A DNA stretch of 64,000 nucleotides from Myxococcota bacterium (lineage in GTDB: Bacteria; Myxococcota_A; UBA796; UBA2385). Positions 11,379-61,043 of the stretch are shown here, piece by piece; position 1 is the first letter of the stretch; each line of letters begins with the position of its first letter. The DNA is taken from assembly GCA_044344255.1 (NCBI GenBank), contig JBIJDH010000002.1, positions 96,001 to 160,000 on the forward strand, read 5' to 3'. The translations under genes and the position numbers were made by a program. The notes under the pieces are model-generated. The model did not search any database. It was not told the origin of the DNA and worked only from the letters and a program-made list of their open reading frames with translations.

Positions 11379-12584
11379 ATGCGCCTTCGTCGTGACGCCG
11401 TTGCCCTGATCCTCGGGACCTCCGCCGTGGTCATCGGCGGGATGGCCTTCAGCGCGAACCGCCTCTTCTCCAGCCAGATGGCCGAGATCGAAGCGGGCCA
11501 GTTCAAGTTGCTGCGGACGATCGTCGACTTCAACCTGCAAGGCGGGCAGGAGCGAGCGCTCTCTCGGGCCGAGCTCCTCGCGGCCACCCCGGCGATCCGG
11601 GAAGCCTTCGCGTCCGGCGACCGCGATCGCCTGCTCTCGGACACTCAGGCCCTCTTCGAGATCCAACGAGACAAGTACGGCCTCGATCAGCTCCAATTTG
11701 TCACCGCAGACAACGTCTCCTTCCTCCGCGTACACAAGCCGGAGAAGTTCGGAGACGACCTCTCTTCCTTCCGGCCCATCGTGGTGGCGGTCAACCAGGA
11801 CCACGTGGCACGTCGGGGCATCTCGCTCAGCCGCACCGGCCCTGCGCTGATGGGCGTGGTGCCGATGCTCACCCCTGCGGGAGAGCCCGCAGGCCTCGTC
11901 GAGATGGGCCTCGACTTCGGGCCGGTCCTCGACCGCTTGAAGGCGACCTACGGCTTTGACCTCACCTTCTTTGTTCAGGAGGAGCCTCTTCGCGCCGTCG
12001 CGACCAGCGTCGATCCCGCCGTGCTGGACGAGACGAACCGCGTGGGGGCCTACCTCAAGTACCACTCCACCAACTGGGAGCGGATGCGGGGCCTCGTGTC
12101 GAGCGAAGACCTCGCCGCCGTCTCGGGCGACAGCGTCGAGTACACCCGCGAGAACCTCGGCGTCCCCTACGGCGTCGTGATGGTCTCCCTCAAGAACGCC
12201 GCGGGCGACCCCATCGGGGTCGTGGCGAGCGCGAAGGACTTTAGTGACACCCGCGCGGCCGGCGGTCGGGTGGCGGTCGTGCAGGCCGCCTCCTCGATCT
12301 TCGGGCTGATCGTGTTGGCGGGGGCCGTCGCCGTCGCGATCAACGGCTTCCTGCTCCGACCGCTGCGCGCGCTCTCCGACGCGATGGCGGCGCTCGCGGC
12401 GGGAGATGCCGGCCGGGTCGTCGATCTGACCGGCTCCTGTGAGGAGCTGGCCGTCGCCGCCGACCGCTACGAAGCGCTCCGCGCCTCGGCCGCTCGACCG
12501 CTCGGCCGGTCGCAGGCCATCGAGGAAGGGTCGGTGACCGACGAGGTGCCCCGGCCCGGCCCGAACACGGCACGCGGAGCATGA
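11379..12584 (+). CDS. Membrane sensor: TM, dCache_3-like domain, TM, HAMP-like segment; no output domain
   Basis: FLRVHKPEKFGDDLSSFRP Cache motif between two TM helices; LLRPLRALSDAMAALAAGD HAMP start; short tail. Confidence 0.8.
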   Translation: MRLRRDAVALILGTSAVVIGGMAFSANRLFSSQMAEIEAGQFKLLRTIVDFNLQGGQERALSRAELLAATPAIREAFASGDRDRLLSDTQALFEIQRDKYGLDQLQFVTADNVSFLRVHKPEKFGDDLSSFRPIVVAVNQDHVARRGISLSRTGPALMGVVPMLTPAGEPAGLVEMGLDFGPVLDRLKATYGFDLTFFVQEEPLRAVATSVDPAVLDETNRVGAYLKYHSTNWERMRGLVSSEDLAAVSGDSVEYTRENLGVPYGVVMVSLKNAAGDPIGVVASAKDFSDTRAAGGRVAVVQAASSIFGLIVLAGAVAVAINGFLLRPLRALSDAMAALAAGDAGRVVDLTGSCEELAVAADRYEALRASAARPLGRSQAIEEGSVTDEVPRPGPNTARGA

Positions 12585-13672
12585 GCGTGAGTCCCCGCTG
12601 TCGCGCGCCCGCGCTCGCGGCCCTCGCGCTGCTCCTCTCCCTCGTCGGGCGTGACGCGGCGGCCAGTGACCGCTCGATCCCCATGGGCAAGGGGCTCCCC
12701 GTGGTGGTGCGCACGGGCGCCTACTTCCTTGACGTCGAGCAGGTCGACGACGCCACCGGCACCTTTGATGCCACCCTTGACCTCCGGATGACCTGGGACG
12801 ACCCCCGGCTGCGCTTCTCCGCCCGCGAGGCTCCCGCGGGCTTCCTGGACCTTCGTGACGCCGATGTCGAAGCCCGCCTGAGCGAGATCTGGTCCCCGCA
12901 GCTCGTGCTTCGAAACCTCGTGGGCGATCCGGCCTTCGTGACCGAGCGCCTCCGCGTCTACCCCTCCGGGCGGGTGGAGTGGATGCGGCGCACGAAGGGG
13001 CAGTTCCGGACCGACTTCGACGTCACCCGATTCCCCTTCGACCGGCAACGCCTGTCCGTCGACATCCTCTCCCGACAGGAGCCCACCTCCCGGTTGATCC
13101 TCGCCTATCAGCAGGCAGAGGTGGACTTCAGCCGGCACGCGAAGGAGCTGGCGGTTGTGGGCTGGCAGATCGGGGCGGTGGACCTTGTCCCGTCGACGGA
13201 GGTCGGCTGGGACGGGGACCGCCACTCCACCCTCAGCGCCACCTTGACGGTGGCGCGTGAACCCCTCCGCTCGATCCCGCCGATCTTCGTCCCGCTCCTG
13301 GCCTCTCTGATCATCCCCTTGATCGCGCTGTGGCTCAATCAGTGTGATGAGGAGGGTGAATTCAAGGTGGAGGCTTTCGAGTTGACGAATGTGTTGATCG
13401 GAGGGCTGTTCGCGTTGATCGCGCTCAACTTCACGATCAACTCCTCCTACCCGATGCTCGCGGAGGGCAACCCCGTCGCGACGCTCTTTGGCCTCAACTA
13501 CCTGCTCCTGGCCGTGAGCTTCGCCATCAACATCGGCGTGATGCGCTTCGGCGTCGTCAAGCGCCTGTTCGGCCCGCACGTCCAGGCTGCGGTCTTCGCG
13601 TACTGCGTTTGGGCCCTGCCAGCCGCGGTCCTCGTCTGCGGCGCCGCGATCGTCCTCCACGCGATGGCCTGA
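12581..13672 (+). CDS. Prokaryotic pentameric ligand-gated ion channel (ELIC/GLIC-like)
   Basis: Signal peptide; WDDPRL and IWSPQL; Pro-loop FPFDRQ; four C-terminal TM helices. Confidence 0.88.
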   Translation: MSVSPRCRAPALAALALLLSLVGRDAAASDRSIPMGKGLPVVVRTGAYFLDVEQVDDATGTFDATLDLRMTWDDPRLRFSAREAPAGFLDLRDADVEARLSEIWSPQLVLRNLVGDPAFVTERLRVYPSGRVEWMRRTKGQFRTDFDVTRFPFDRQRLSVDILSRQEPTSRLILAYQQAEVDFSRHAKELAVVGWQIGAVDLVPSTEVGWDGDRHSTLSATLTVAREPLRSIPPIFVPLLASLIIPLIALWLNQCDEEGEFKVEAFELTNVLIGGLFALIALNFTINSSYPMLAEGNPVATLFGLNYLLLAVSFAINIGVMRFGVVKRLFGPHVQAAVFAYCVWALPAAVLVCGAAIVLHAMA

Positions 13673-33575: not shown

Positions 33576-35402
33576 TCAGTGGACCTGGGTGCCCCGGCCG
33601 CCCTGGTTGGCCTTGCCGGCGATGTGCTGCTGGAAGCGCTGGAGGTAGAGCTGGAGGTCGCCGAGGTTTCTCCGGTCGGCCGACTTCAAGAGGGCCATGC
33701 GCCCGCGCTTCAGCGCGGCCTCCAAGCCCGAGATGTCCTGCTTGTGCAGGTGGCCTTGGTTCTCCCGGAGGAAGCGCTCGAGCGCGACGAGCTGCTGCTC
33801 GATCTGCTCCCGCAGGGCCTTGAGCTCACGGTCGCCTTCATCTTCGGGCGCCGCAGCCGCCGTCGCCACGCCGGCCTTCATTCGCTCGAGCTCTTGCTTG
33901 CTGAGGCCGGTCGGGGAGTCGATCGTGATCTTCTCGGAGACGCCGGTGCGGAGGTCGCGCGCTGAGACGGCGACGATGCCGTTGGCGTCAATGGCGAACT
34001 TGACCTCAATGCGAGGCACGTTGCGGGGCGCCGGCTGAATGTTGCGGAGCTCGAAGTCGCCGAGGCTCACGTTGTCTCGGGCGAGCGTGTTCTCCCCCTG
34101 CAGGACGTGGATCTTCACCGTTCGCTGGTTGTCTACCACGGTGCTGACGAGCTGTGTCTTTTGCGCGGGGATGGTGGTGTTCTTGTCGATGAGGGGCGCA
34201 AAGCGCCCGCCCTGTGTCTCGATGCCGAGGGAGAAGTTGGTCACGTCGAGGAGGGTGACGCTCTTCACGTCGCCCTCGAGGATGCCGGCCTGGATGGCGG
34301 CGCCGATGGCCACCACCTCGTCGGGGTTGAAGCCCTTGTTGAGCGGGCGGCCGAAGAGCTTCTTCACCGCCTCTTGTACGAGGGGGATGCGGCTCGACCC
34401 ACCGACCAGGATGACCTCGTCGATGCGCCCGACCTCGATGCGCGACTCCGTGATGGCCCGTTGGCACTCTGAGATCGTGAGCTCGACCAGCGGGCGGATC
34501 AAGCCTTCGAATTGGCTGCGGGAGAGCGTACACTGGAGGTGCTTTGGCCCGCTGGCGTCGGCGACGAGGAAGGGCAGGTGGATGTCGGTGGAGGTCGAGG
34601 TGGAGAGCTCCAGCTTGGAGCGCTCCGCGGCGTCTCGCATCCGCTGCATCGCCACCCGGTCGCCGCTGATGTCCATGGAGTGCTGCGTCTGAAACTGCTG
34701 GAGCAGCCACTCGACGATCTTGCGATCGAGGTCAGCTCCGCCGAGGGCGTTGTTGCCGCGGGTGGCTCGCACTTCCGCAACATCTCGATCCACATCGAGG
34801 ATCGAGATGTCGAAGGTGCCCCCCCCGAAGTCATAGACCGCGATGGTGCTCGCCTTCTTTCGATCGTGAACGTATGCGAGCGCGGCGGCGGTGGGCTCGT
34901 TGATGATGCGCAAGACGTCCAGGCCGGCGATGGTGCCCGCATCGCGGGTCGCCTGACGTTGACGGTCGGTGAAGTAGGCGGGGACCGTGATGACCGCCTC
35001 GGTGACGGTGGCGCCCAAGGAGTCCTCGGCCGCTTTCTTCATCTTTTGGAGCACCATCGCCGACAGCTCTTGGGGTGAGTATTGACGCTCACCGATCTCG
35101 ACCAGACAATCACCGTTTCGGGCCTCGCTGACGCGGAAGTTCACCATCTCGACGTCGTGGCGGGCCTCCTTGAAGCGCCGGCCCATGAAGCGCTTGATGG
35201 TATAGACCGTCGCGTCCGGGTTGATCAGCATCTGGCGTTTGGCGATGTCCCCCACAAATCGTTCCCCGTCTTTCGCGAAGCCAACGACCGAAGGTGTGAC
35301 CCTCCCGCCTTCTTCGTTGATGATCACGCGCGGCTCACCGCGATCCATGTAGGCGCAGACCGAGTTGGTGGTTCCAAGATCGATGCCGATGATCGTGCCC
35401 AT
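33576..35402 (-). CDS. dnaK: Hsp70/DnaK paralogue
   Basis: GIDLGTTNS, TVPAYF, INEPTAAALAY, DFGGGTFDIS, VGGSSRIP, linker VTLLDV, complete SBD-beta, divergent lid. Confidence 0.9.
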   Translation of the reverse strand: MGTIIGIDLGTTNSVCAYMDRGEPRVIINEEGGRVTPSVVGFAKDGERFVGDIAKRQMLINPDATVYTIKRFMGRRFKEARHDVEMVNFRVSEARNGDCLVEIGERQYSPQELSAMVLQKMKKAAEDSLGATVTEAVITVPAYFTDRQRQATRDAGTIAGLDVLRIINEPTAAALAYVHDRKKASTIAVYDFGGGTFDISILDVDRDVAEVRATRGNNALGGADLDRKIVEWLLQQFQTQHSMDISGDRVAMQRMRDAAERSKLELSTSTSTDIHLPFLVADASGPKHLQCTLSRSQFEGLIRPLVELTISECQRAITESRIEVGRIDEVILVGGSSRIPLVQEAVKKLFGRPLNKGFNPDEVVAIGAAIQAGILEGDVKSVTLLDVTNFSLGIETQGGRFAPLIDKNTTIPAQKTQLVSTVVDNQRTVKIHVLQGENTLARDNVSLGDFELRNIQPAPRNVPRIEVKFAIDANGIVAVSARDLRTGVSEKITIDSPTGLSKQELERMKAGVATAAAAPEDEGDRELKALREQIEQQLVALERFLRENQGHLHKQDISGLEAALKRGRMALLKSADRRNLGDLQLYLQRFQQHIAGKANQGGRGTQVH

Positions 35403-35633
35403 GGGGAGCGCCTCGTGGGGCCAGCGGGTCAGACGGAGGGAGCGTAGGGAGGGCGTCGGCGGGGACGTGACCTTGGCGGCCACGACGCCCCGTCAGCGGC
35501 GGCCGAGGCAGACCCACCGAAGCGCAGCTTATCACCCGGGAGGTCGTGGGCCTCGGCGGGAGGGCGAGTCTCGTCGGCGCCACGGAGTTAACCACTCGCG
35601 GGGCCGCTCGTGGCTGCGACGGGGGAGCGACGG

Positions 35634-47292: not shown

Positions 47293-50200
47293 GTGGAAGT
47301 CGCTGTGGAAGGCACTGTGGAAGGCACTGAAGCTCAGACCGACGCCCCGATCGACGGCCGGCCGCTCGCGCAGATCGACGCGGTCCGCCGCACGATGCGC
47401 TGGGCGGCCGCCGGCGGTGCCGCCCGGTACCTCGGCGTCAACTGCGCCCGTCTGGTCACGGCGAGCCTCGATGCGCTGCCCCGGGAGGGCGAAGGTGCGG
47501 AGCGCGTCCGAGACGAGCTGTCCCACCTGGTCGGCCTGCTGGGCGACCTCGACTCGCTACCGTCCGGGGAGCGGGCCGAGCGGCTGGGGGCCCTGCTGGG
47601 GGTCCTCGAGCGGGTCCCCGCGGGGCCGGCCCCACGTCTCCCCACGCGCGCTCCCGCACCGGTCGAGCCCGCCCTCCTCGCGGAGGATGGGGGCGCGCCG
47701 GTCGAAGGGGAGGCCGCCCCAGCCCAGCGCGGGGGCGACGACCCCAGCGGCGAGGCCCGCGAGCGCGACGGTCGGGATCGTGATCGGCGTGGCCGCCGCC
47801 GGGAGCGCGGCGACCGCGCCGAGCGGCCAGAGGGCGTCGAGCCCCGAGGGCCCCGACCGGAGCGAAACGAGCGCGCCGAGGGTGTCGAGGCTCGTGGTCC
47901 CCGACCCGAGCGAGGCCAACGCCCCGAGCGCGGGGAGCGCGTCGACCGCCCCGAAGGCGCCGAGGGCTCGGAGGCCCGTGGATCGCGCCCAGAGCGCGCT
48001 CCTCGCGGAGAGCGCAACGAGCGGGGCGAGCGCAACGAGCGGGGCGAGCGCAACGAGCGCAACGAGCGTGGAGAGCGCAACGAGCGCGCCACTTCGGTCG
48101 AGAAGCCCGAAGGAGAGGAGCCCACCCCGGAGCGGTCCGCCCGCGCGGAGGGTTCGGGGCGACGGGAGCGCGGACGTGGCGATCGACCCGGCCGCGGAGA
48201 GCGTAACGACCGCGGAGAGCGCAACGAGCGCGGAGAGCGCAACGAGCGCGGAGAGCGCAACGAGCGCGGAGAGAAGCCCGAGAGGGCGGAGAAGGCCGAG
48301 CGTCCGGTGGAGGTGCCTGCGGCGGATGTGCGGAGGCTCCCGCTGGGCCATCCGGAGGGCACCGGGGCCCCGCTGAGCTCGCTCGGGGTGTTCACCGATG
48401 AGCTGCTGGAGCGGCTGGGTGACGAGGGCATCAGCACGGTCGCCGAGCTCCTCCTCCTGCCTCCGACCAGCTACGATCGGCCGCCGCTGGTGCCGATCGC
48501 CGCCTCGATGCCAGAGGGCCCGGCGGTGGTGCGGGGGTCTGTGGTCAGCCGCAGCGTGCGCTTCGTGCCGGGCGGGCAGCGGGTGGAGGTCGTGCTCGCA
48601 GGGCCAGACGGCCACAGCCTCCGGCTCCGCTGGCCGGGGAGGGGCCCGCGGGGGTGGGAGCGCTGGAGCGTCGGCTCGGAGCTGGGCTTCATCGGGCGTA
48701 TCTCCGAGATTGAAGAGGGCACCTTCGCCTTCTACGAGGGTGAGCCCGTCGGACTGGACGGTCGCGGCAGCGGCATCGTCCCCCTGTACAGCGTCGAGGG
48801 CGTCGAAGATCGGCTGATCCGGGAGGCTGTGGCCCTCTCCCTCGGCCTCATCCAAGGCGCGCTGAAGGACACCGTCAGCGCCGAGCTCATCGAGCAGCAC
48901 CGCCTGCTCCCCCTCGACGAGGCCCTCCGCGACGCGCACTTCCCCGCCAACGCGGCCGGCCGGGGTCGCATCCGCATGGCCTTTGAGGAGCTCTTCCTCC
49001 TCCAGCTCGGCATCGCCTGGCGGGCCGGGCGTGGGCAGGCGGAGCGCGGCTTCGCGCACACCATTGTGCACGGCGCGGTGGGGCAGCTCGCGGTGCAGCA
49101 CCAGATCACGTTGTCCGACGGCCAGGAGTCGGCCTTCTGCGACATCCGGCGAGACCTCCTCAAGCCCAACCCCATGACCCGCCTCCTCCAGGGTGACGTC
49201 GGGGCGGGCAAGGGCCTCGTGGCGCTGCTCACCGCGGTGGTGGTCGCCGAGAGCGGGCACCAGGTGGCGATGATCGCGCCCGATCCGCTCACGGCCGAGC
49301 GACGCTTCCTTCACGCGGAGGCCGTCCTTCGCTCGGTCGGTCTCGTGCCGCTGCTGGTCGGCGACACGGTGAACCACGCGATGACCGACGCCATCCGGCG
49401 CGGCGAGGTCCACGTCGTCTTCGGCACCCGCAGGATCCTCGAGGAGCAGGTCCATTGGAAGCGGCTCGGGCTCGTCATCGTCGAGGAGCGCGGTCCCTAC
49501 GGCACGGTCAGCCCGCAGAGCCTCAGCAGCCGCAGCGTGGTCCCCGATCTCCTCGTGGTCACCAAGGCGCCCATCCCTTCAAGCCTCTCGCTGACGGTCT
49601 TCGGGGACTTTGACCTCTCCATCGTGCCCTCGGTCGAGCGCCCGCGGGTGACGGTCAAGGTCTTTGGCGCCGACGCCCGCGCCGAAGCCTACGCACGCGC
49701 CTGGGAGGAGGTCGAGAAGGGCCGCCAGGCCTTCGTCGTCTTCCCGGTCCGTGACGGCCGAGACCTGCTCGGCGTCGAGGACGCCCAGCGCATGGCCAAG
49801 GCCCTCCAGGCCGAGGGGCTCCCCGGAGCGCGCATCGGCACCTACTGCTCGGCGATGAGCCGCGAGGAGCGCTTCCGCGTCTTCGACGACTTCCAGCACC
49901 GCCGCGTAGACGTGCTCGTCTGCACGACCTACATCGAAGACGCGCCGCCGGTCGACAACGCCAGCGTCGTGGTCGTCGAGTACGCCGACATGCACGACCT
50001 CGTCCGCCTGCACCGCCTCCGCGGCCACGTGGCCCAGGGGCGCCACCCCGGCACCTGCCTGTTCGTGCTGTCGAACAACGCCGCCGAGGGGGCGAGCCAG
50101 GTCGTGAGCACGGTCATCAACGAGCGGGACGGCTTCCGCCTCGCCGAGGTTGACCTGCAGGTGCGGGGCGCCGAGGCCCTCCTCGGAGACCGCGCCACCG

Positions 50201-50439
50201 AGATGCCCGAGTTCCGCTGGGCCGATCCGCCGCGCGACCGAGACCTCCTCCTGCGGGCCCGCGCCGAGGCCTTCCAGCTCGTGGCCGCGGATCCCGGCCT
50301 CCGAAAGAGCCCCGACCTCGCCCGCGCGGTCTCGCTGCGGTGGGGAGACTGGCTCGGTCAGGCCAGCGCCACGCCGGAGTCCGCCAAGGCCGCCGACAAT
50401 CGCAGCCGCAAGGGCCGTCGCCGTCGTCGGCGGCGGTAG
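47293..50439 (+). CDS. RecG-like protein with long Arg/Glu/Gly-rich N-terminal extension and degenerate helicase motifs
   Basis: RMAFEELF, PMTRLLQGDVG and DGFRLAEVDLQVRG identify the RecG family; Walker B reads VEER. Start codon uncertain. Confidence 0.85.
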   Translation: MEVAVEGTVEGTEAQTDAPIDGRPLAQIDAVRRTMRWAAAGGAARYLGVNCARLVTASLDALPREGEGAERVRDELSHLVGLLGDLDSLPSGERAERLGALLGVLERVPAGPAPRLPTRAPAPVEPALLAEDGGAPVEGEAAPAQRGGDDPSGEARERDGRDRDRRGRRRERGDRAERPEGVEPRGPRPERNERAEGVEARGPRPERGQRPERGERVDRPEGAEGSEARGSRPERAPRGERNERGERNERGERNERNERGERNERATSVEKPEGEEPTPERSARAEGSGRRERGRGDRPGRGERNDRGERNERGERNERGERNERGEKPERAEKAERPVEVPAADVRRLPLGHPEGTGAPLSSLGVFTDELLERLGDEGISTVAELLLLPPTSYDRPPLVPIAASMPEGPAVVRGSVVSRSVRFVPGGQRVEVVLAGPDGHSLRLRWPGRGPRGWERWSVGSELGFIGRISEIEEGTFAFYEGEPVGLDGRGSGIVPLYSVEGVEDRLIREAVALSLGLIQGALKDTVSAELIEQHRLLPLDEALRDAHFPANAAGRGRIRMAFEELFLLQLGIAWRAGRGQAERGFAHTIVHGAVGQLAVQHQITLSDGQESAFCDIRRDLLKPNPMTRLLQGDVGAGKGLVALLTAVVVAESGHQVAMIAPDPLTAERRFLHAEAVLRSVGLVPLLVGDTVNHAMTDAIRRGEVHVVFGTRRILEEQVHWKRLGLVIVEERGPYGTVSPQSLSSRSVVPDLLVVTKAPIPSSLSLTVFGDFDLSIVPSVERPRVTVKVFGADARAEAYARAWEEVEKGRQAFVVFPVRDGRDLLGVEDAQRMAKALQAEGLPGARIGTYCSAMSREERFRVFDDFQHRRVDVLVCTTYIEDAPPVDNASVVVVEYADMHDLVRLHRLRGHVAQGRHPGTCLFVLSNNAAEGASQVVSTVINERDGFRLAEVDLQVRGAEALLGDRATEMPEFRWADPPRDRDLLLRARAEAFQLVAADPGLRKSPDLARAVSLRWGDWLGQASATPESAKAADNRSRKGRRRRRRR
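48005..48270. repeat. Two blocks of 9/18-bp repeats encoding (ERGERN)n
   Basis: gagcgcaacgagcgsggm units at about 48005-48087 and 48193-48270. Confidence 0.9.
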
Positions 50440-53430: not shown

Positions 53431-53460
53431 AAAAAAAAGACCCCGCCTTTCGGCGGGGCC
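53431..53460 (-). terminator. Rho-independent terminator after tRNA-Ala(CGC)
   Basis: Hairpin ccccgcc-tttc-ggcgggg with A8 on the plus strand (U-tract on minus). Confidence 0.9.
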
Positions 53461-53465
53461 CTATC

Positions 53466-53540
53466 TGGTGGAGGAAAGGGGAGTTGAACCCCCGACCCCT
53501 GGAGTGCGATTCCAGTGCTCTCCCACTGAGCTATTCCCCC
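53466..53540 (-). tRNA. tRNA-Ala(CGC)
   Basis: Reverse complement folds as a cloverleaf: acceptor GGGGGAA/TTCCTCC with G3:U70, anticodon arm CTGGA-ATCGCAC-TCCAG, T-loop TTCAACT, CCA end. Confidence 0.96.
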
Positions 53541-53627: not shown

Positions 53628-54458
53628 TCAGTCGAGGCCGCGCTCCGCGAGGTCTTCTTCGTCGAGGCCGAGGAAGTGCCCGATCTCGTGAAAGAGCGTG
53701 ATGCGCAGCTCCTCGATGATCTGCTCCCGATCGGCCGCCATCCGCTCCAGGTTGTTGCGGAAGAGCGTGATGGTGGGCGGCAGGTTGCTCCAGGGGTTGT
53801 CCATCGACCGATCGACGAGGGAGTGACCGCTGAAGTAGCCGAGGAGGTCTAGGGGCGAGGCCGGCGGGTCATAGCTGCGGAGGATCTCCTCGCGGGGGAG
53901 GTCTTCAAGGAGGATCGCCACGTTGGCCAGCCAGGCCTGCAGATCGGGGTGGAGCGAGCCGACAGCCTCCTCGACGATGTCCTCGACGACCTCATCGCTC
54001 AGCGAGTGTGGCACGAGGAAGCTGTCGGGCTCCAGCCAGCGGGCCCGGGTCAGCGCGCGGCGTCGGCCGGCCTTGTCGCCCTTCCACTCGAGCAGCAGCG
54101 AGCGGGCCCACCATGCTTCGGGGTTCCGCGGGTCCTCCCGGAGGGCGCGGGCGGCCGCACGGGAGGCCTCGTCGAAGCGGAGGAGGTCGAAGCAGGTCGT
54201 CGACAGGGCCGCCCAGGAGGAGGAGTGGCCGGGGTCGGCGAGGGCTGCGCTGCGGTAGGCCTCGGCGGCCTCGCTGTCCCGCGAGAGGGCCCGCAGCGCG
54301 TCGCCGCGCACGAACCAGGCGCCCGGGTGCGTCGAGTTGAAGGTCAGGGCGCGGTCCGCGAAGCGCAGCGCCTCCTCCGGCGCGGCCCGATCGAGGGCCT
54401 CTTCCGCTTGATCCAGCAGCTCTTCAATCGCCACCACGGAGGCACCCACGTTCGTCAC
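53628..54458 (-). CDS. TPR-repeat plus Zincin_1 (minimal gluzincin-like) metallopeptidase
   Basis: About three TPRs (AWFVRGDAL, AWWARS); LLGYFSG; P.TITLFRNN; HEIGHFLG; GTGA overlap with the upstream gene. Confidence 0.88.
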   Translation of the reverse strand: MTNVGASVVAIEELLDQAEEALDRAAPEEALRFADRALTFNSTHPGAWFVRGDALRALSRDSEAAEAYRSAALADPGHSSSWAALSTTCFDLLRFDEASRAAARALREDPRNPEAWWARSLLLEWKGDKAGRRRALTRARWLEPDSFLVPHSLSDEVVEDIVEEAVGSLHPDLQAWLANVAILLEDLPREEILRSYDPPASPLDLLGYFSGHSLVDRSMDNPWSNLPPTITLFRNNLERMAADREQIIEELRITLFHEIGHFLGLDEEDLAERGLD

Positions 54459-56347
54459 CCCTTCTTCGGCTCACGTACGACGTAACGAAGGCTGGTCCGG
54501 AAGGTCGCGTAGTCCCCCTGGACCAGCGAGAACTTGATCGCGCGGAGCTCCCGCTTGATGCACCGCTGGACCTCGCCGCCGAGGAGCGTCGCCTTCTCGA
54601 AGTTGACGCCCATGACGTAGCCACGAGGCGACACGTAGGCGGTGAGCTCGGTGGAGGCGACGCTGCCGGGCTCGGCGGTCAGGTGCTGGGCGAAGCAGGC
54701 GTCGAGGCGGTCCGCGCGCCGCTGGACGAGCGCTCGGGCCCCCTCGTCATCGAAGGGGGCGGGCGTCTGCTCGGCGGTGGGCGTGAAGCCCATGGGATCG
54801 GTGAGCTTGAGGACGGGCTCGACGGTCTCGGTGGCGCCGTCCTCGATCGTCACCTCGCGGGTGAAGGGCTCGAAGCCGTCGAGCTCCACCTTGATGGCGA
54901 CGGGCTGGCCGGGGGGGACCCGATGCTCGCGGAGCACGCCCTCGGAGGTCGCGAACGTACCGGCCACGGTGACCTCGCCGGCGGGGGGATCGCAGATCAC
55001 GTTAAGGATCCCGTGCGGAGGGTCCACGACGGGAGGGTCGCCCCACTCGATCCGAGAGGCGACGAAGGCGGAGACGCCGACGATCATCAGCGCCGCGAGG
55101 CCGATCAGCCAGGGCAAGGGGTTGGGCCGCTCGGCCTCGATGGTGATGGCCTTACGCTCCTGGTCATCGGTGGCGACCGTGACCAGCGCTACGGCCTTGT
55201 TGCGGGGCATCTTCCGCGGATCGATGGTGACCTGGATGATCTGCTCGGCCGCGCCGGGATCCAGGCGGGAGGGGTTTACCTCCACCCAGTCGCGGTCGAC
55301 GAAGACCCTCCCGGGCATTCGGCCCGAGCCGCCATTGCGGATGGTGAGCCGGAGCTGGACCGGCGCCTTCCGCGCCTTGATCGAGATGACCTCGGGGCCA
55401 TCGACGTGGAGGCGGGCGGCGCGCTCGGGGCGGGCCGGCTGCGCGGTGCCGCCGAGGTTGAGCGTGCGGCTTGGGTTGGTGAGCGCGTCGGGGACCCGAG
55501 GGGGAGGGGAACCTCGGGAGTGGCCCCCGGCCGTCGAGTGGGTGGTAGGGGCGTCCGAGACGTCCTCGGTGTCCTCCCCGGCCAGCGCGAGCCGGCGCAC
55601 ACGGAGCGGCTCCGGCTCCTTTTTGGGGGCCGCGGGCGGGACGATGCTGGTGCCAAGCACTTCTCGGCGCTTCTCGTCGTACCGGGCGCGGGTGATGGGG
55701 TCCTTCAGGATGTCCCAGGCCTGATCGAGGCGCCCGTAGATCTCGCCGGCTCGGCGGGTGTCTTGGAGCTGTCGGGCCCAATGGTACCGATCTCGGTGCG
55801 CCTGCTCGAGGACCTCGACCGAGGAGTGCGCGGGGACACCGAGTACGGCGTAGTGATCGATGAAGGAGGGGCGACCGGGAGGACCGGGATCCTCTGGGCC
55901 CGGGCTGCGGGCGGCGTGGCTCTCGCTCAACAGCTCCGCCACCTGGGCATCGACCGTCTCAACGTCGAGGCCGAGCTTCGCGCCCTGCTCTCGGATCGCC
56001 TCTTCGCCCTTGGGGGTCAGCACGCCGTCGGCGAGGGTGCCGAGCACGAAGAGGCGGAGCACCTGCAGCTTCCGGTCGCGATCCCGACCCTCGACCTCCG
56101 CTTGGTACTGCGCGCGCTCCTCGATGAGGGCGCGCCGGCAGAGCGTCACGCTCTTGATGACCCAGAGCGCCTCTTGCCGGTACTTGGGGTTGTTCTGCTG
56201 GCCCTGCGCCCAGGCGCGCCGCTGGCGGATCGCAGCCTCGGCCTCGTCGGAGGTCGCCTCCGTGGCGATCCCCAGGTACTCGAACAGCGTTGCCTTGCCG
56301 ACCGTGGCCAGGAATCGGTTGATTTCTTCGAAATCCCGCTGTTCCAT
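54455..56347 (-). CDS. Bitopic membrane protein: two J-like domains, Ig-like domain, TM, PEGA, AgmX/PglI (TonB-C-like) C-terminal domain
   Basis: TLFEYLGI...; DHYAVLGV...AWDILKDPITRARYD; TM LPWLIGLAALMIVGV; PEGA LNVICDPPAGEV..VELDGFEPF; LDACF...VSPRG.V...VQRCI. Confidence 0.8.
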   Translation of the reverse strand: MEQRDFEEINRFLATVGKATLFEYLGIATEATSDEAEAAIRQRRAWAQGQQNNPKYRQEALWVIKSVTLCRRALIEERAQYQAEVEGRDRDRKLQVLRLFVLGTLADGVLTPKGEEAIREQGAKLGLDVETVDAQVAELLSESHAARSPGPEDPGPPGRPSFIDHYAVLGVPAHSSVEVLEQAHRDRYHWARQLQDTRRAGEIYGRLDQAWDILKDPITRARYDEKRREVLGTSIVPPAAPKKEPEPLRVRRLALAGEDTEDVSDAPTTHSTAGGHSRGSPPPRVPDALTNPSRTLNLGGTAQPARPERAARLHVDGPEVISIKARKAPVQLRLTIRNGGSGRMPGRVFVDRDWVEVNPSRLDPGAAEQIIQVTIDPRKMPRNKAVALVTVATDDQERKAITIEAERPNPLPWLIGLAALMIVGVSAFVASRIEWGDPPVVDPPHGILNVICDPPAGEVTVAGTFATSEGVLREHRVPPGQPVAIKVELDGFEPFTREVTIEDGATETVEPVLKLTDPMGFTPTAEQTPAPFDDEGARALVQRRADRLDACFAQHLTAEPGSVASTELTAYVSPRGYVMGVNFEKATLLGGEVQRCIKRELRAIKFSLVQGDYATFRTSLRYVVREPKKG

Positions 56348-56534
56348 TTACCGCCAGGGGGGTCCTCGTTGGGGGACCGAGCGCCGTTCGAGAGGAGGAA
56401 GGGGGGGGGCGATGTGCGTCGCCGGGGGGCGTGACGTTTGTACCGCCGAAGGATCTGAGGGTCAATGCCCGGCGACCGGGTGCGGTTGGTCTCGCCGGGG
56501 AGGCGAGGCACGACCGCTCACCCTACACGGTCCT

Positions 56535-58295
56535 TCAATGCACCTGAAACAGCGCCACCGTCTTCTGAGCCTGGCTCATGCGACCGGCGTCGAGGCCGCC
56601 TTTGAGGTCCATCCGGGCGCGCCGTACCCGCCGGGTCTCCACGTCGACGATGTCGATCTCCAGGATTTGGTTGAGCCCGTAGCGGTAGACCACCTCGATC
56701 GGGGTGCCCTTGGGACGCGGGGGGAGGTCGTCCAGCACCACCTCGCCGATCACCTTGACCTCGTCCCGGCGGGTGCCGGTCCCCTCGGTCACCTCGACCC
56801 GAACGGCGGTCATGTTGTCATAGGCATAGGCGAAGCGGCTCTTCTTCTCGCAGGGCACCGCCGTGGCCTCGGGGATCACAACGACCACGCGCTCGTTCAG
56901 GCTGCGGTCGAGGACCACGATGCCCAAGGGGTGACTGGTGACGTCGGTGATCTTGACCGGCGGCAGCCCGATGTAGCCGAAGACCTCACCGGCGGTGCCG
57001 ACGTCGGCCGGGGCCTCAGTCGCCTCCACCTGCGGGAGACGCGCGCCATCGGTGACCCCCTCGGGCGCCGTCGGGCCGGACAGCGGGCCTCGGCTCCCGC
57101 GTGGGAGCTCCCCGGGTCGCGGCGCGGCGCGCAGGGGAGCGAGGGCGGGGTGGTCCTGCTGCGGCTGCAGGGCGACCTCTCGGGCGCGGCGCGCGAGGGC
57201 CTGCCGGTGCGGCACGAGCGCGGGGTGGTTGGCGCGGTGGCGAAGCACGCCCGCGAGCGCCGCGCCCATCGCGACACACTCGTCGGGGTTGACGGTGGTC
57301 GCGGGCGTCTTCCCGGTGAGGGTGGCGAGCATCTCTCGCACCATCGGCATGCGGGTCGATCCTCCGACCAGCAGCACCTCGTCGAGGTCTTCCCACTTCA
57401 TCCCGGCCTTGTCGAGGACGAGGCGGGTGGTATCGGCGCACTGGTCGACGAGGTCGGCGGTCATCCGCTCGAACTCCTCTCGGGTGACGGTGACCACCAT
57501 GCGGTGGCCCCGGAAGTTCACCGGGATCACGGCCTTCGGCTTCGTGGAGAGCGAGATCTTGGCGTGCAGGCAGCGCTCGTACAGCTCCTGGTAGGGCTGT
57601 GGATCGTCGCGGGGGTCGAGGCCGAAGCGGTCCATGAACTGGTCGGCCACCGAATTCAGCAGGCGGTCGTCCCAGTCCTTTCCGCCGAGCTCGGCGTTTC
57701 CGTCGCTGGCGATGGTCTTGAAGGAGATCCCGCGGATCTCCATCAGCGTGACGTCGAAGGTGCCGCCGCCGAGGTCGAAGACCAGGAGGCGGCGATTGCC
57801 CCCCAGGCGCTCGATGCCGTAGGCGATGGCCGCCGTGGTGGGCTCGTTGATGATCGACAGCACGTTGAGGCCGGCGATGGTGCCCGCCTCGGCGGTGGCT
57901 TGGCGCTGCGAAGAGTTGAAGTAGGCGGGGACCGTGATCACCGCGTCCTTGATCGGGAAGCCGAGGGCCTCTTGGGCGTCCTCCTTGAGCTTCTTCAGGA
58001 TGATCGCCGAGAGCTCTTGTGGCGTGTAGCTGCGGCCGAAGAACTCGAGGGTGAAGTCTGGCTCGCCCATCGAGCGCTTGATGAAGCGGACGATGTTGGT
58101 GGGATCGACCACCACCATCTTGACGGCCTCATCACCCACCACGCAAGCGTCGCGGTCGTAGAAGTGGATCACGGAGGGGGTGGTCGGCTGCCCCTCGGAA
58201 TTGGGCACGATCACCGGCTTGCCGAAACGATCCACGATGGCCATCGCGGAGAAGGTCGTACCGAGGTCGATGCCGAGGACGGACTCGTCACTCAT
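56535..58295 (-). CDS. Atypical Hsp70 (no lid, long NBD-SBD linker insertion)
   Basis: GIDLGTTFS, TVPAYF, INEPTTAAIAYG, DLGGGTFDV, VGGSTRMP and NPDECVA motifs; SBD-beta present. Confidence 0.92.
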   Translation of the reverse strand: MSDESVLGIDLGTTFSAMAIVDRFGKPVIVPNSEGQPTTPSVIHFYDRDACVVGDEAVKMVVVDPTNIVRFIKRSMGEPDFTLEFFGRSYTPQELSAIILKKLKEDAQEALGFPIKDAVITVPAYFNSSQRQATAEAGTIAGLNVLSIINEPTTAAIAYGIERLGGNRRLLVFDLGGGTFDVTLMEIRGISFKTIASDGNAELGGKDWDDRLLNSVADQFMDRFGLDPRDDPQPYQELYERCLHAKISLSTKPKAVIPVNFRGHRMVVTVTREEFERMTADLVDQCADTTRLVLDKAGMKWEDLDEVLLVGGSTRMPMVREMLATLTGKTPATTVNPDECVAMGAALAGVLRHRANHPALVPHRQALARRAREVALQPQQDHPALAPLRAAPRPGELPRGSRGPLSGPTAPEGVTDGARLPQVEATEAPADVGTAGEVFGYIGLPPVKITDVTSHPLGIVVLDRSLNERVVVVIPEATAVPCEKKSRFAYAYDNMTAVRVEVTEGTGTRRDEVKVIGEVVLDDLPPRPKGTPIEVVYRYGLNQILEIDIVDVETRRVRRARMDLKGGLDAGRMSQAQKTVALFQVH

Positions 58296-58303
58296 GGCCA
58301 GCT

Positions 58304-58840
58304 CTACCGGGAGTCGTTGTTGGAGTCGGTCGGACGCTCGTGGCGCAGGAGCACCACCTCTTCCGCCCGGAGCAGTCGCCCGGCGCGGGTGAAGCCGCGC
58401 TTGACCACCTGCTGCACCTTGTAGTCGAGACCGGGGTCGGAGGTGGTGGTCACCTTGACGACCTTCTGGGTCTCGCGATCGAATTCATCCCGCGGGTCGA
58501 GGGGGAGCACGTCCCGGCGGTACAGCAGCTCCTGGAATTCGTCGAGCAGATACTGGAAGCTGTCGGCGATGACCTCGGCGCTCATCTCCTGGTTCACGAG
58601 GCTCTGCTTGAACCAGGAGAGGCTGTCGTGAAACAGCAGCAGATCGAGGAGCAGTGGCTTCTCGGTCTGAAAGATGAAGTCGTCCTTGTACTGTCGGAGC
58701 TCGGTGTAGAGCTGGTCAAAGGCCCGCTGTTGCAGGGCGTCCCGTGTGGACTGTTGATGCACGAAGTCCTTGAGGGTCCCCACCGACTCGGCGAGCCCAT
58801 CGAGGGTGATCTCTTCGTTCCGCGAGTCGGATGTTGCCAC
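58304..58840 (-). CDS. GrpE-like nucleotide exchange factor
   Basis: N-terminal coiled coil; LLLDLLLFHD; FDRETQKVV; VKRGF..GRLLRAEEVV C-terminal GrpE pattern; lies between two Hsp70 genes. Confidence 0.8.
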   Translation of the reverse strand: MATSDSRNEEITLDGLAESVGTLKDFVHQQSTRDALQQRAFDQLYTELRQYKDDFIFQTEKPLLLDLLLFHDSLSWFKQSLVNQEMSAEVIADSFQYLLDEFQELLYRRDVLPLDPRDEFDRETQKVVKVTTTSDPGLDYKVQQVVKRGFTRAGRLLRAEEVVLLRHERPTDSNNDSR

Positions 58841-58848
58841 TGACCCTC

Positions 58849-60849
58849 CTACCGACCGCTACCGAGCTCGGTGGCCAGGTTGATGAACGTGCCTTCCAAC
58901 TCGATGCTCTCGTTACAGTGGTGGTAGTCGGTCGGCAAGGAGCAGAGCGCCTCGAGGAAGTCGCGCTGCACCTGTCGGCCGACGCCCACGGTGATGACCC
59001 GCCCGCCCAGGCGCTTGATTCGCGTGGCCTCGGCGACGGTGGCGGCGGGGTCGTCGGGGTGGCCGTCGGTGAGCAGCAGGTAGACGCGCTGCACGCCCGC
59101 CTTGCCCTTGAGCGCGTCTCGCGCGGTGGCCAAGCCCTGGTGCATCGGCGTCGAGCCGATCGGCGTGAGGGAGTCGATCGCCGCCTCGATGCGGAGGCGC
59201 TCGTCGGTCAGCCCGCTCTTCAGCCCGCCGGGGAAGGCGACCACCGCCAGGCTCCGCTGCGCCGCGAGCGTGCGCCCGACAAAGGCGCGCGCCGCCTTTC
59301 GGGCCTCGATGATGTTCGTGCCGTACATCGAGCCGGAGCAGTCCATGATCAACGCGAGGTGCATCGGGACGCGGTTCAGCGCGATGTCCTCGAGGCTGGT
59401 CTGGGCGGTGGCGAGCCGGTGGGCGAGGGTCTGGCCGGTGGTGACGTCCATCGCCTCCACCTCCACGATCCCGTTGCTGTTGTACCGGAAGGTGACCGCC
59501 AGCCGAGAGTCTCCCGCGGCGCGGGGGTGGATGCCGTAGAACTCGAAGTGCCCGAGGACGCTGCACTGGAGCGGATCGGTCTCCTCGCCCTGCACCAGCC
59601 AGAGGTCCATCGAGGTCTGGCTGTTGTGGGTGGTGACGTAGTCGTCTCGGGTGCGCTCACAGGGGATGCGGCTGTTTCGGCGGATGATCGGGCTGTTGTG
59701 CAGCGCGCCATCCTTGTAGACCACCATCCCGAGCGAGTGGCTCGTCACGTCGTGGGTGCGCAGGTCGGTGGGGGGCTTTTGGCCGCTCAGCCTCGCCGAC
59801 TCGAGGGCCGCGGTGAGGGCGGCGCCGAGGGCCACGCACTCGTCGGGGTTGATGTCGGTGGAGGGGTCGCGCTGGAAGACATCGGTGATCAGCCGGCGCA
59901 CCATCGGCATGCGCGTCGAGCCGCCGGAGAGGAGGACGGTGTCGACCTCGTCGGGGCGCGACCTCGACTCTTCGAGCACCTCTCGGACCTTGGCCTCGCA
60001 GCGCTGCACGAGGGTCTTCGTGAGGTCCTCGAAGCGCTCCCGGGGGACCTCGAGGCGGAGGATCCGGCCCTGGTAGTCATAGAAGAGGTTGACCTTGGGC
60101 CGGCGGGAGAGCGAGAGCTTGGCGCTCACACACTTCTGTCGGAGGTCATGCGCGGCGGCGGGGTCCTCCAAGGGATCGATGCCGTGCTTCTTCTTGAACT
60201 CGTCTGCCGCGTAGGAGATGAGGGCGTCGTCGAAGTCCTTGCCGCCGAGCATGGAGTCGCCGGCGGTGGCGGACACGGTGATGTCTCGCCCCTCGATGTT
60301 GACGACCGTGACGTCGAAGGTCCCGCCGCCGAGGTCGAAGACCATGCAGCGCATGCTGCGACCGGCGTTCGCGAGTCCGTAGGCGAAGGCGGCGGCGGTG
60401 GGCTCGTTGATGAGCTTGAGGACGCGGAGACCGGCGAGCTCACCCGCCCGCATCGTCGCGCGGCGGTGCTTGTCGGCGAAGTAGGCAGGGACGGTGATGA
60501 CCGCCTCTTCGATCTTCTCACCGAGGCGCAGCTCGGCGTCGTGCTTGAGCTTAGCGAGGATGTAGCTGGAGAGCTGCTCGGGGCTGTATTCCTGGTTCCG
60601 GTACTTGAAGGAGTAGTTGTCGTCGCCCATGTGGCGCTTGACGAACTCCACCACCTGGTTGGGGAAGGCCACGGCCGCCTGCTTGGCGTAGTTTCCGACA
60701 ATGATCTCGTCGCCGTCAAAGAGGACGACGGAGGGGGTGATCCGGTCGCCTTCGGCGTTGTGCAGGATCTCGGGCACGCCGTGCTTGTTCACATAGGCGA
60801 TGGCGGAGAAGGTTGTTCCGAGGTCGATCCCGACTGCGGTCGTTGACAT
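58849..60849 (-). CDS. Hsp70-vWA fusion protein
   Basis: Full Hsp70 NBD and SBD-beta, then a vWA domain with MIDAS DCSGS, GSTPM and LLTDG, plus VITVGVG. Confidence 0.92.
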   Translation of the reverse strand: MSTTAVGIDLGTTFSAIAYVNKHGVPEILHNAEGDRITPSVVLFDGDEIIVGNYAKQAAVAFPNQVVEFVKRHMGDDNYSFKYRNQEYSPEQLSSYILAKLKHDAELRLGEKIEEAVITVPAYFADKHRRATMRAGELAGLRVLKLINEPTAAAFAYGLANAGRSMRCMVFDLGGGTFDVTVVNIEGRDITVSATAGDSMLGGKDFDDALISYAADEFKKKHGIDPLEDPAAAHDLRQKCVSAKLSLSRRPKVNLFYDYQGRILRLEVPRERFEDLTKTLVQRCEAKVREVLEESRSRPDEVDTVLLSGGSTRMPMVRRLITDVFQRDPSTDINPDECVALGAALTAALESARLSGQKPPTDLRTHDVTSHSLGMVVYKDGALHNSPIIRRNSRIPCERTRDDYVTTHNSQTSMDLWLVQGEETDPLQCSVLGHFEFYGIHPRAAGDSRLAVTFRYNSNGIVEVEAMDVTTGQTLAHRLATAQTSLEDIALNRVPMHLALIMDCSGSMYGTNIIEARKAARAFVGRTLAAQRSLAVVAFPGGLKSGLTDERLRIEAAIDSLTPIGSTPMHQGLATARDALKGKAGVQRVYLLLTDGHPDDPAATVAEATRIKRLGGRVITVGVGRQVQRDFLEALCSLPTDYHHCNESIELEGTFINLATELGSGR

Positions 60850-61043
60850 CTTTGTCCAATCCCGTCCATCGGCGCGGGCGCCGCTCCAGGAGTCGATTCT
60901 GAGCGTCGCTCGCGTGCCAGCGAGCGAGCGGGCGAGGTATAGCCCCACCGGTAGTGCAAAGACCGTACTATACCGTGGCCCTCGCCGCCAGCTCCCGACA
61001 CTCGGAAGCGTTGTTAGCTGCGGTGGGGCACAGCGGAGCAGCC

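Follow-up and report, generated by a model that had tools for sequence, protein, structure and literature searches.

The picture of Hsp70s in bacteria rests on three types of protein, DnaK, HscA and HscC, and J domains, as a rule, act through an HPD motif at the linker site of their Hsp70. Here we describe an operon of five genes, called A to E, that encodes two Hsp70s without a helical lid, a GrpE-like protein, a membrane protein with J-like domains lacking HPD, and a putative protease of the zincin type. It occupies positions 53628 to 60849, minus strand, of a 64,000-nucleotide stretch (the window) from a Myxococcota bacterium (assembly GCA_044344255.1, contig JBIJDH010000002.1, positions 96,001 to 160,000). 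We judge it marginally probable that the operon is an order-wide, single-copy, specialized Hsp70 system which, on the cytoplasmic side of the inner membrane, serves one defined client complex by assembling, holding or trimming it. No paper describing the operon was found in the literature, in which most subscription papers were not searchable; the first-pass annotation of this DNA, made from the letters alone, had likewise known of no characterized counterpart.

Two Escherichia coli systems resemble the operon in part. HscC is a specialized Hsp70 encoded beside a membrane-bound J partner (DjlB/DjlC) and has the same three deletions in the nucleotide-binding domain (NBD) as A and C; however, it retains a shortened lid and, as described, works without GrpE (PMC8215388, excerpted text). 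The window operon, in contrast, combines a pair of lid-less Hsp70s, one of them fused to vWA, with a private GrpE, J domains without HPD and a protease gene, and in the tree A and C fall apart from HscC (SH-aLRT 98, with HscC on a long branch). HscA–HscB, which has IscU as its single client, shares with the operon a Met at DnaK position 436 in A and the loss of the K55–E267 salt bridge and of the GrpE-signature loop (PMC8215388, excerpted text). This Met, found in 43/53 A, is described in the same excerpt as the change that makes the HscA pocket shallow, and the vWA fusion A is predicted to have a shallow pocket of the HscA type. Unlike HscA, however, the operon misses the HscA cut-off (375.5 vs. 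708.6 bits), its Hsp70s lack the lid and there are no isc genes among its neighbors. By analogy, the operon may work as HscA and HscC do, as a narrow-client specialist, but it belongs with neither.

The conflict theme built around GAP1-N2 GTPases (Kaur et al. 2020, PMC7159879, as far as excerpted) combines an HSP70 with GrpE, sometimes a second HSP70 and a DnaJ/TPR partner, in a membrane and PEGA/vWA context. The window operon has no GAP1, no TRAFAC GTPase and no FNIII protein (no FNIII Pfam match in 31 D members), a distinction drawn by gene content. In addition, the second HSP70 of the theme, which is placed in actinobacteria and firmicutes, is without a peptide-binding domain in the excerpted account (PMC7159879), whereas C keeps one. 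The cyanobacterial DnaK1–DnaJ3–GrpE set (McDonald et al. 2022, PMC9239167, in excerpt) is similar in being a lineage-wide, dedicated Hsp70 system for one envelope machine. It serves type IV pilus motors in that account, and this model was rejected by a PilT profile (below). The Hsp70/vWA associations of CoCoNuT systems were also considered and set aside, since in the excerpted part of PMC11090510 these are degenerate Hsp70-like domains in McrBC systems, unrelated to the proteins described here.

The five genes and their products

Five minus-strand open reading frames can be read directly off the sequence, with gaps of 8, 8 and 187 nt between A and D and a 4-nt GTGA overlap between D and E. Their main features are:

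58849..60849, minus strand: A, Hsp70-vWA without lid (NBD, SBD-beta [the beta part of the substrate-binding domain] and C-terminal vWA), 666 aa from ATG (Pfam)
58921..59358, minus strand: vWA domain of A, residues 498-643, with the metal-ion-dependent adhesion site (MIDAS) DxSxS...T/S...D intact (Pfam and ortholog alignment)
58304..58840, minus strand: B, GrpE-like protein of a distinct subfamily, 178 aa (Pfam GrpE)
56535..58295, minus strand: C, second lid-less Hsp70, ending after helix A, 586 aa (Pfam HSP70)
56964..57239, minus strand: low-complexity insertion of C, residues 353-444, between NBD and linker (18% median identity)
54455..56347, minus strand: D, bitopic membrane protein, 630 aa, with J1, helical unit, J2, Pro-rich linker, Ig domain, transmembrane (TM) helix, PEGA-like domain and AgmX/PglI-C-like domain
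56078..56347, minus strand: J1 of D, J-like, with invariant R44, Q48, Q51, N53 and K55 replacing HPD; predicted dock for C
55652..55870, minus strand: J2 of D, a J fold without HPD (Z ~10 to J domains), dispensable in some orthologs
55124..55429, minus strand: Ig domain of D, PapD/ASH/BACON-type, residues 307-408, on the cytoplasmic side (Z 12.8)
55055..55120, minus strand: TM helix of D, residues 410-431, predicted N terminus in (K/R excess before the helix)
54473..55030, minus strand: periplasmic part of D (PEGA-like and TonB-C-like), variable and dispensable
53628..54458, minus strand: E, TPR and Zincin_1 (minimal zincin), 276 aa, 4-nt overlap with D (Pfam)
53676..53690, minus strand: HEIGH (HExxH) motif of E

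Pfam places HSP70 at residues 5–484 of A, followed by VWA at 498–643. The ATPase residues, compared with E. coli DnaK, are kept in 53/53 A and in 43–45 of 45 C (D8, T11–T12, K70, E171, D194, T199 and K270), and the metal site of the vWA domain is intact, with DxSGS in 52/52 full-length A, T at the middle site in 45/52 and an invariant D. The helical lid (SBD-alpha) is missing from both Hsp70s: A runs from SBD-beta directly into the vWA domain, and C stops after helix A. Both proteins fall below the DnaK equivalog cut-off of 648 bits (A, 440.4; C, 422.3). In the alignment their NBDs carry the deletions of HscC, that is, of the 76–101 segment, the D211 loop and the GrpE-signature loop. R167 is replaced by K in 40/53 A and by S in 42/45 C, T or A stands at Q378, and IRTH or VxIT takes the place of the VLLL linker; judged by these substitutions, the residues that would read an HPD motif are altered. 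In quick trees, DnaK, HscA and HscC are separated from A, C and the lid-less Hsp70s found in other phyla (SH-aLRT 100 and 98). In family f4 (loci L072, L075, L101, L111, L113 and L118), the insertion of C contains a short GLA(D/Y)GG motif, which persists even after decay of the ATPase motifs.

B scores 37.6 bits on Pfam GrpE (cut-off 25.8), and its profile matches three solved GrpEs, with the coiled coil, the four-helix bundle and the beta domain. D has a Pfam DnaJ match at residues 164–224, which at 26.3 bits is just under the cut-off of 27.8; the match recurs in 28/31 aligned D members. D carries two J-like domains, neither with HPD. The motif stands at the J2 loop in 1/38 D orthologs and is absent from the window's D. 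J2 is J-like by fold, and J1 is called J-like from its pattern and helices only. The predicted structure of D (mean pLDDT 86) consists of J1, a helical unit, J2, a disordered linker, the Ig domain (rmsd 2.0 over 98 aligned residues), one TM helix and two periplasmic domains. Lys and Arg are commoner before than after the TM helix in 52/55 orthologs; hence, by the positive-inside rule, the N terminus of D should be cytoplasmic. An ESM Atlas search with residues 1–150 of D gave a best feature score of 0.89, to unnamed clusters, with TerB (for half of the helical unit) and Fn3_SaeA as leads only; no relevant paper turned up for SaeA. Lastly, E reaches 83.1 bits on Zincin_1 (Pfam cut-off 22.4), contains TPR and keeps HExxH in 43 of 48 full-length sequences. 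It is likely, from these matches, a metalloprotease; 3e11 bears the name "predicted zincin-like metalloprotease".

Conservation and joint decay of the operon

In a sample of the phylum, with five candidates scored per genome for A, the SBD-vWA half of A was found in 58/59 genomes of the same order and in 1/341 others (E ≤ 1e-32), and B was found in 56/59 and 0/341, respectively (E ≤ 1e-15). B matches 56/60 relatives. Homologs bear NCBI labels that include Myxococcota, Deltaproteobacteria and Alphaproteobacteria bacterium; these labels and the GltG-like genes (below) suggest an uncultured order of Myxococcota. A is single copy in each genome except that of the window. In other phyla, an Hsp70-vWA was not found at E ≤ 1e-28 among 301 + 301 + 251 sampled genomes, with 7–9 candidates scored per genome and no positive control, apart from one lone vWA gene.

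The order A-B-C-D-E is kept in 44/54 loci long enough to judge. Altogether 73 loci were tallied, 44 in full order (L022 counted among them), 19 cut by the end of a contig or stretch, and 10 exceptions. The exceptions comprise L052, L055 and L027 without E; L058 and L060, of one genus, from which D-E has been relocated as a pair (found in L099 and L100); L076 and L077 with A-B only; L101 and L102 without B; and L110 without D. The five-gene arrangement is far beyond chance. It is fixed, in single copy, at one chromosomal site across seven families, with A 62–81% identical in intact loci. The near-universal core of the operon is A, usually with B, and the C-D-E arm is lost or decays as a unit.

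The strongest argument for counting E as part of the system comes from this decay. The five E that lack HExxH (L072, L075, L101, L108 and L110) are all in loci with a drifted C, the NBD identity of which is 27–56% compared to 68–75% for the 12 loci of family f4 that are intact; catalytic residues are missing from three of these five C, and J1 is lost or degenerate in four of the five loci. A, by contrast, keeps its catalytic residues in decayed loci wherever they are readable, and the flanking maf and hydrolase genes show normal identity (48/46% vs. 47/48%). In two more genomes, A-B is retained and no D match extends over J1. In the tree of A, L101, L075 and L109 group together, L110 is sister to the intact L111, and L108 belongs to another family, while L076 and L077 have lost C-D-E outright. 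Joint decay of C, J1 and the HExxH of E thus amounts to at least three events, about three to four. Because C, the J1 loop and HExxH decay together and the flanking genes do not, we take the five genes to be one functional unit.

At the level of genes, the first-pass annotation largely stands: the five co-oriented genes with their spacing are there to be read, Pfam confirms the two atypical Hsp70s, the GrpE-like factor and the HExxH protein, and the genes do co-occur across genomes. Its private, conserved, membrane-tied Hsp70 system with a protease gene also agrees with the synteny, the joint decay and the predicted complex described below. What was not supported was a classical Hsp70–GrpE–J triad, given J-like domains without HPD, changed HPD-reading residues and the absence of the GrpE-like gene from two loci.

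Another copy of Hsp70-vWA, with 78% DNA identity, is present in the window's genome (G000, contigs C12 and C68; L121:125-2830, minus strand; L122:128-1648, plus strand). It is fused in frame to the C terminus of a Pro-rich protein, after a MoxR-type AAA_5 ATPase gene and with a NACHT/STAND-like gene nearby, and is split by a repeat seen at several contig ends (insertion sequence-like). The arrangement suggests that a MoxR-type conflict locus has captured this copy, which may serve there as a decoy.

The predicted C–D contact and relatives in other phyla

The pairing of the J-like protein with an Hsp70 that the first-pass annotation had proposed is supported by a structure prediction. The model of C with D(1-235) scored 0.70, and the best of three controls 0.00; the mark for this score is reached by 116/157 solved complexes and 2/215 mismatched pairs, counts that are only rough with our own alignments. 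Runs agree in 100% of the contacts, and the pLDDT of the partner is ≥79. In the model, D contacts C through residues 41–56 and 64–68, that is, the invariant J1 loop, and the contacts on C map to DnaK residues 62–68, 98–104, 230–241 and 251–263. We take these segments to be lobes IB and IIB. The known J site on DnaK involves L391, P419, R167 and Q378 (PMC8215388, excerpted text). Thus, the J1 loop of D is predicted to dock on lobes IB/IIB of C, away from that site, and since the contact surface differs from the known one, the high score is unlikely to be a mere memory of DnaK–DnaJ.

J1 with the helical unit, its QxNPK loop intact, is also fused to S-adenosylmethionine-dependent methyltransferases in 7/90 matches (P0367, P0369, P0371 and P0374–P0377), none in the window's genome. 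It is possible that the unit is a portable tag that recruits Hsp70 C.

Relatives of the operon occur in other phyla. The B profile matches 1402 representatives at E ≤ 1e-10, and a scan of 17 distant B members gave 12 loci in seven named phylum-level groups. A GrpE-like gene is followed by two Hsp70s in 9/12 of these loci and by one in 2/12, and the next gene usually encodes a J-like protein without HPD. These twin lid-less Hsp70 operons (L079-L090, L203), of which no published account was found, resemble the window operon in their GrpE subfamily and in having two lid-less Hsp70s of the same broad clade. Their J-like protein has a W..R.N.P loop and matches J2 of D (hhalign 97.2%, E 3.4e-11). 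They differ in being patchy, mostly without vWA or zincin, and often accompanied by TPR or zinc-ribbon J proteins and a HerA/DUF87 ATPase, which lies beside the relatives in five of the loci scanned. Loci L079-L086 and L090 (Acidobacteriota, Calditrichota, Bacillota, Verrucomicrobiota, Binatota and Actinomycetota) hold a GrpE-like gene, two lid-less Hsp70s and one to three HPD-less J-like proteins, often with a HerA/DUF87 ATPase of 1000 aa. One other Myxococcota genome has Hsp70, Hsp70-vWA and J-like genes in a row. Within this patchy family, the window operon thus represents a fixed variant. A 4.8-kb contig without an Hsp70 (L088:546-4627) presents a GrpE-like gene followed by vWA, unannotated and kinase-PEGA genes, similar to a TerY-P triad.

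Expression, client and rival explanations

Three further features, all on the minus strand, adjoin the operon:

60967..60972, minus strand: TATAGT, a sigma70-type -10-like hexamer ~120 nt upstream of A
53466..53540, minus strand: tRNA-Ala(CGC), directly downstream of E
53437..53462, minus strand: intrinsic-terminator-like hairpin and U tract, where the unit probably has its 3' end (the pattern alone is weak, 3 in the region vs. 3.2 by chance)

Hexamers of the -10 type were found in 22/52 upstream regions (shuffled sequences, 10.1 ± 2.7, maximum 17), and a scan of the region gave no full two-box sigma70 promoter (0). CIRCE and HAIR operators, sought by their consensus motifs, were absent from the same regions (0/52); control by other regulators is possible. 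Contigs of a freshwater metatranscriptome (run X1, 99%+ alike) span A-B, B-C and C-spacer, but a 20-kb control is also covered in 25/30 bins, so that RNA is indistinguishable from DNA; runs X2 and X4 yielded short pieces only. The operon is flanked upstream of A by a divergent maf, and its neighbors in the window are maf, UDG, S1, a tRNA, a membrane protein, a hydrolase and RecG. The RecG-like protein (47293-50439, plus strand) has a long N-terminal E/R/G-rich repeat extension. Farther away lie a DnaK paralog above the PRK00290 cut-off with no adjoining grpE or dnaJ match (33576-35483, minus strand) and a partial, below-cut-off match to bacterial pentameric ligand-gated ion channel models (12581-13672, plus strand). 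A separate gene of the genome groups with HscA in a quick tree.

Neither of two profile tests pointed to a client. GltG-like genes are present in 21/21 genomes, whether the operon is intact or decayed, and so carry no information on this point. PilT was not found in 12/13 genomes of family f4, one of them a single contig (G024, G030, G036, G046, G051, G056, G175, G185, G190, G345, G411 and G416, in which GltG-like genes remain), nor in 6/7 of the f4 genomes with intact operons, which are 90–98% complete. The type IV pilus motor was rejected as a client since PilT does not follow the operon across this family, and the motility role suggested by the first-pass annotation is disfavored in this form.

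We propose the following mechanism. D would dock C through its J1 loop and hold it at the membrane, as a tether rather than an ATPase trigger; A probably grips the client via its shallow pocket and the metal-dependent vWA site; B, from its family, likely resets the nucleotide on the Hsp70s; and E would cut the client or one of its subunits. Several observations weigh against this reading. The two client tests pointed to no client, the C–D interface is not enriched in C-specific conserved residues (4/24 vs. 31/323, p = 0.28), and C was chosen over A as the partner of D on co-loss alone. The protease activity of Zincin_1 is itself a prediction. Decay events are few, and one grouping (L101, L075 and L109) may reflect long-branch attraction. 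Gene order alone proves little, as maf, S1 and hydrolase are almost as syntenic as the operon; moreover, B is absent between A and C in two loci, and E is absent beside D in one genus and in L027.

Some of these points bear on whether E is part of the system at all, or an older neighbor of A-B(-C-D) caught in a slowly rearranging region. TPR-zincin homologs occur in 5/5 genomes of other orders of the class, the two best of their loci (13–15 kb each) have no A-D genes, and this query recovered no E from two genomes of one genus with A-D intact. Nevertheless, D and E overlap by 4 nt in 18/34 loci, the pair was relocated together in one genus, and HExxH is lost only where C and D decay; we regard separate status for E as improbable. 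The part of D beyond the membrane raises a different possibility, namely that an outer-membrane or contact cue is sensed by its PEGA/TonB-C-like end, which then turns on the Hsp70s and the protease, much as the first-pass annotation had it. The periplasmic part spans at least 130 residues in 43/55 D, the N-in topology noted above fits, and the C terminus resembles the AgmX/PglI C-terminal domain of gliding proteins, scoring 36.9 bits on this TonB-C-like model (cut-off 40; one ortholog above it). PEGA, at E ≤ 0.05, was matched in 13/31 aligned D members and not in the window's D. However, the periplasmic domains are the least conserved folded parts of D (24–27% median identity, compared to 48% for J1, the best conserved), 6/55 D, in operons otherwise intact, end ≤11 residues past the TM helix, an ending seen in no fewer than two lineages whose C is intact, forms of 330–340 aa consist of J1, helical unit, linker, Ig and TM only, without J2 or a periplasmic part, and the AgmX/PglI-C domain sits on 5–21 proteins per genome in 21/21 genomes. 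Since the constant core is J1-helical-Ig-TM, we view D as an anchor more than a sensor and a trans-envelope relay as unlikely.

A module still acting in conflict, against phages or competitors in the manner described by Kaur et al., would account for the patchy relatives beside HerA/DUF87 ATPases, for the recent A copy fused to a protein beside a MoxR-type ATPase, and for the HSP70 and GrpE placed in GAP1-N2 GTPase systems (PMC7159879, excerpted text). It is rather unlikely for the window operon, the fixed, single-copy and single-site distribution of which is unlike that of a defense island: no GTPase, nuclease or toxin gene adjoins it in the window, and PADLOC returned two weak, partial matches only. 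Among viral contigs, the best 80 of 582 matches were generic DnaK-like proteins (34–42% identity), none spanning the vWA domain. A further DnaK system for general stress folding, comparable to the DnaK2/GrpE duplicate in Myxococcus xanthus, is very improbable. Hsp70, GrpE and J-like genes do stand together, myxobacteria carry many Hsp70s (PMC11019930, excerpted text), and this genome has at least 11 Hsp70 genes; yet A and C are below the DnaK cut-off, lid-less, outside the DnaK group (SH-aLRT 98–100) and altered in linker and R167. General heat stress is unlikely because heat-shock operators are lacking and a separate grpE-dnaK-dnaJ locus exists elsewhere in the genome. The stress and conflict roles once offered for the operon are thus both disfavored.

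Returning to the specialized, membrane-tethered client system that we prefer, a more specific form of it is possible but doubtful. In this form, the HPD-less J-like domain would clamp lobes IB and IIB of a lid-less Hsp70 from the side that faces away from the J site. Serving as a portable docking tag, which methyltransferases carry too, it would build a membrane-bound, two-Hsp70, vWA-guided and protease-coupled machine; the module, mobile and ATPase-linked in other phyla, would have been domesticated as the defining core function of one order. The C–D model gives a cheaply testable prediction, that of a J-like domain binding a different Hsp70 surface. A, C and their relatives form a fourth, lid-less clade of bacterial Hsp70s; it has a GrpE subfamily of its own, occurs in several phyla and has become fixed in one order. 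For this uncultured order, the operon would mark a core process, with a client that needs a vWA-capped Hsp70 and a coupled protease.

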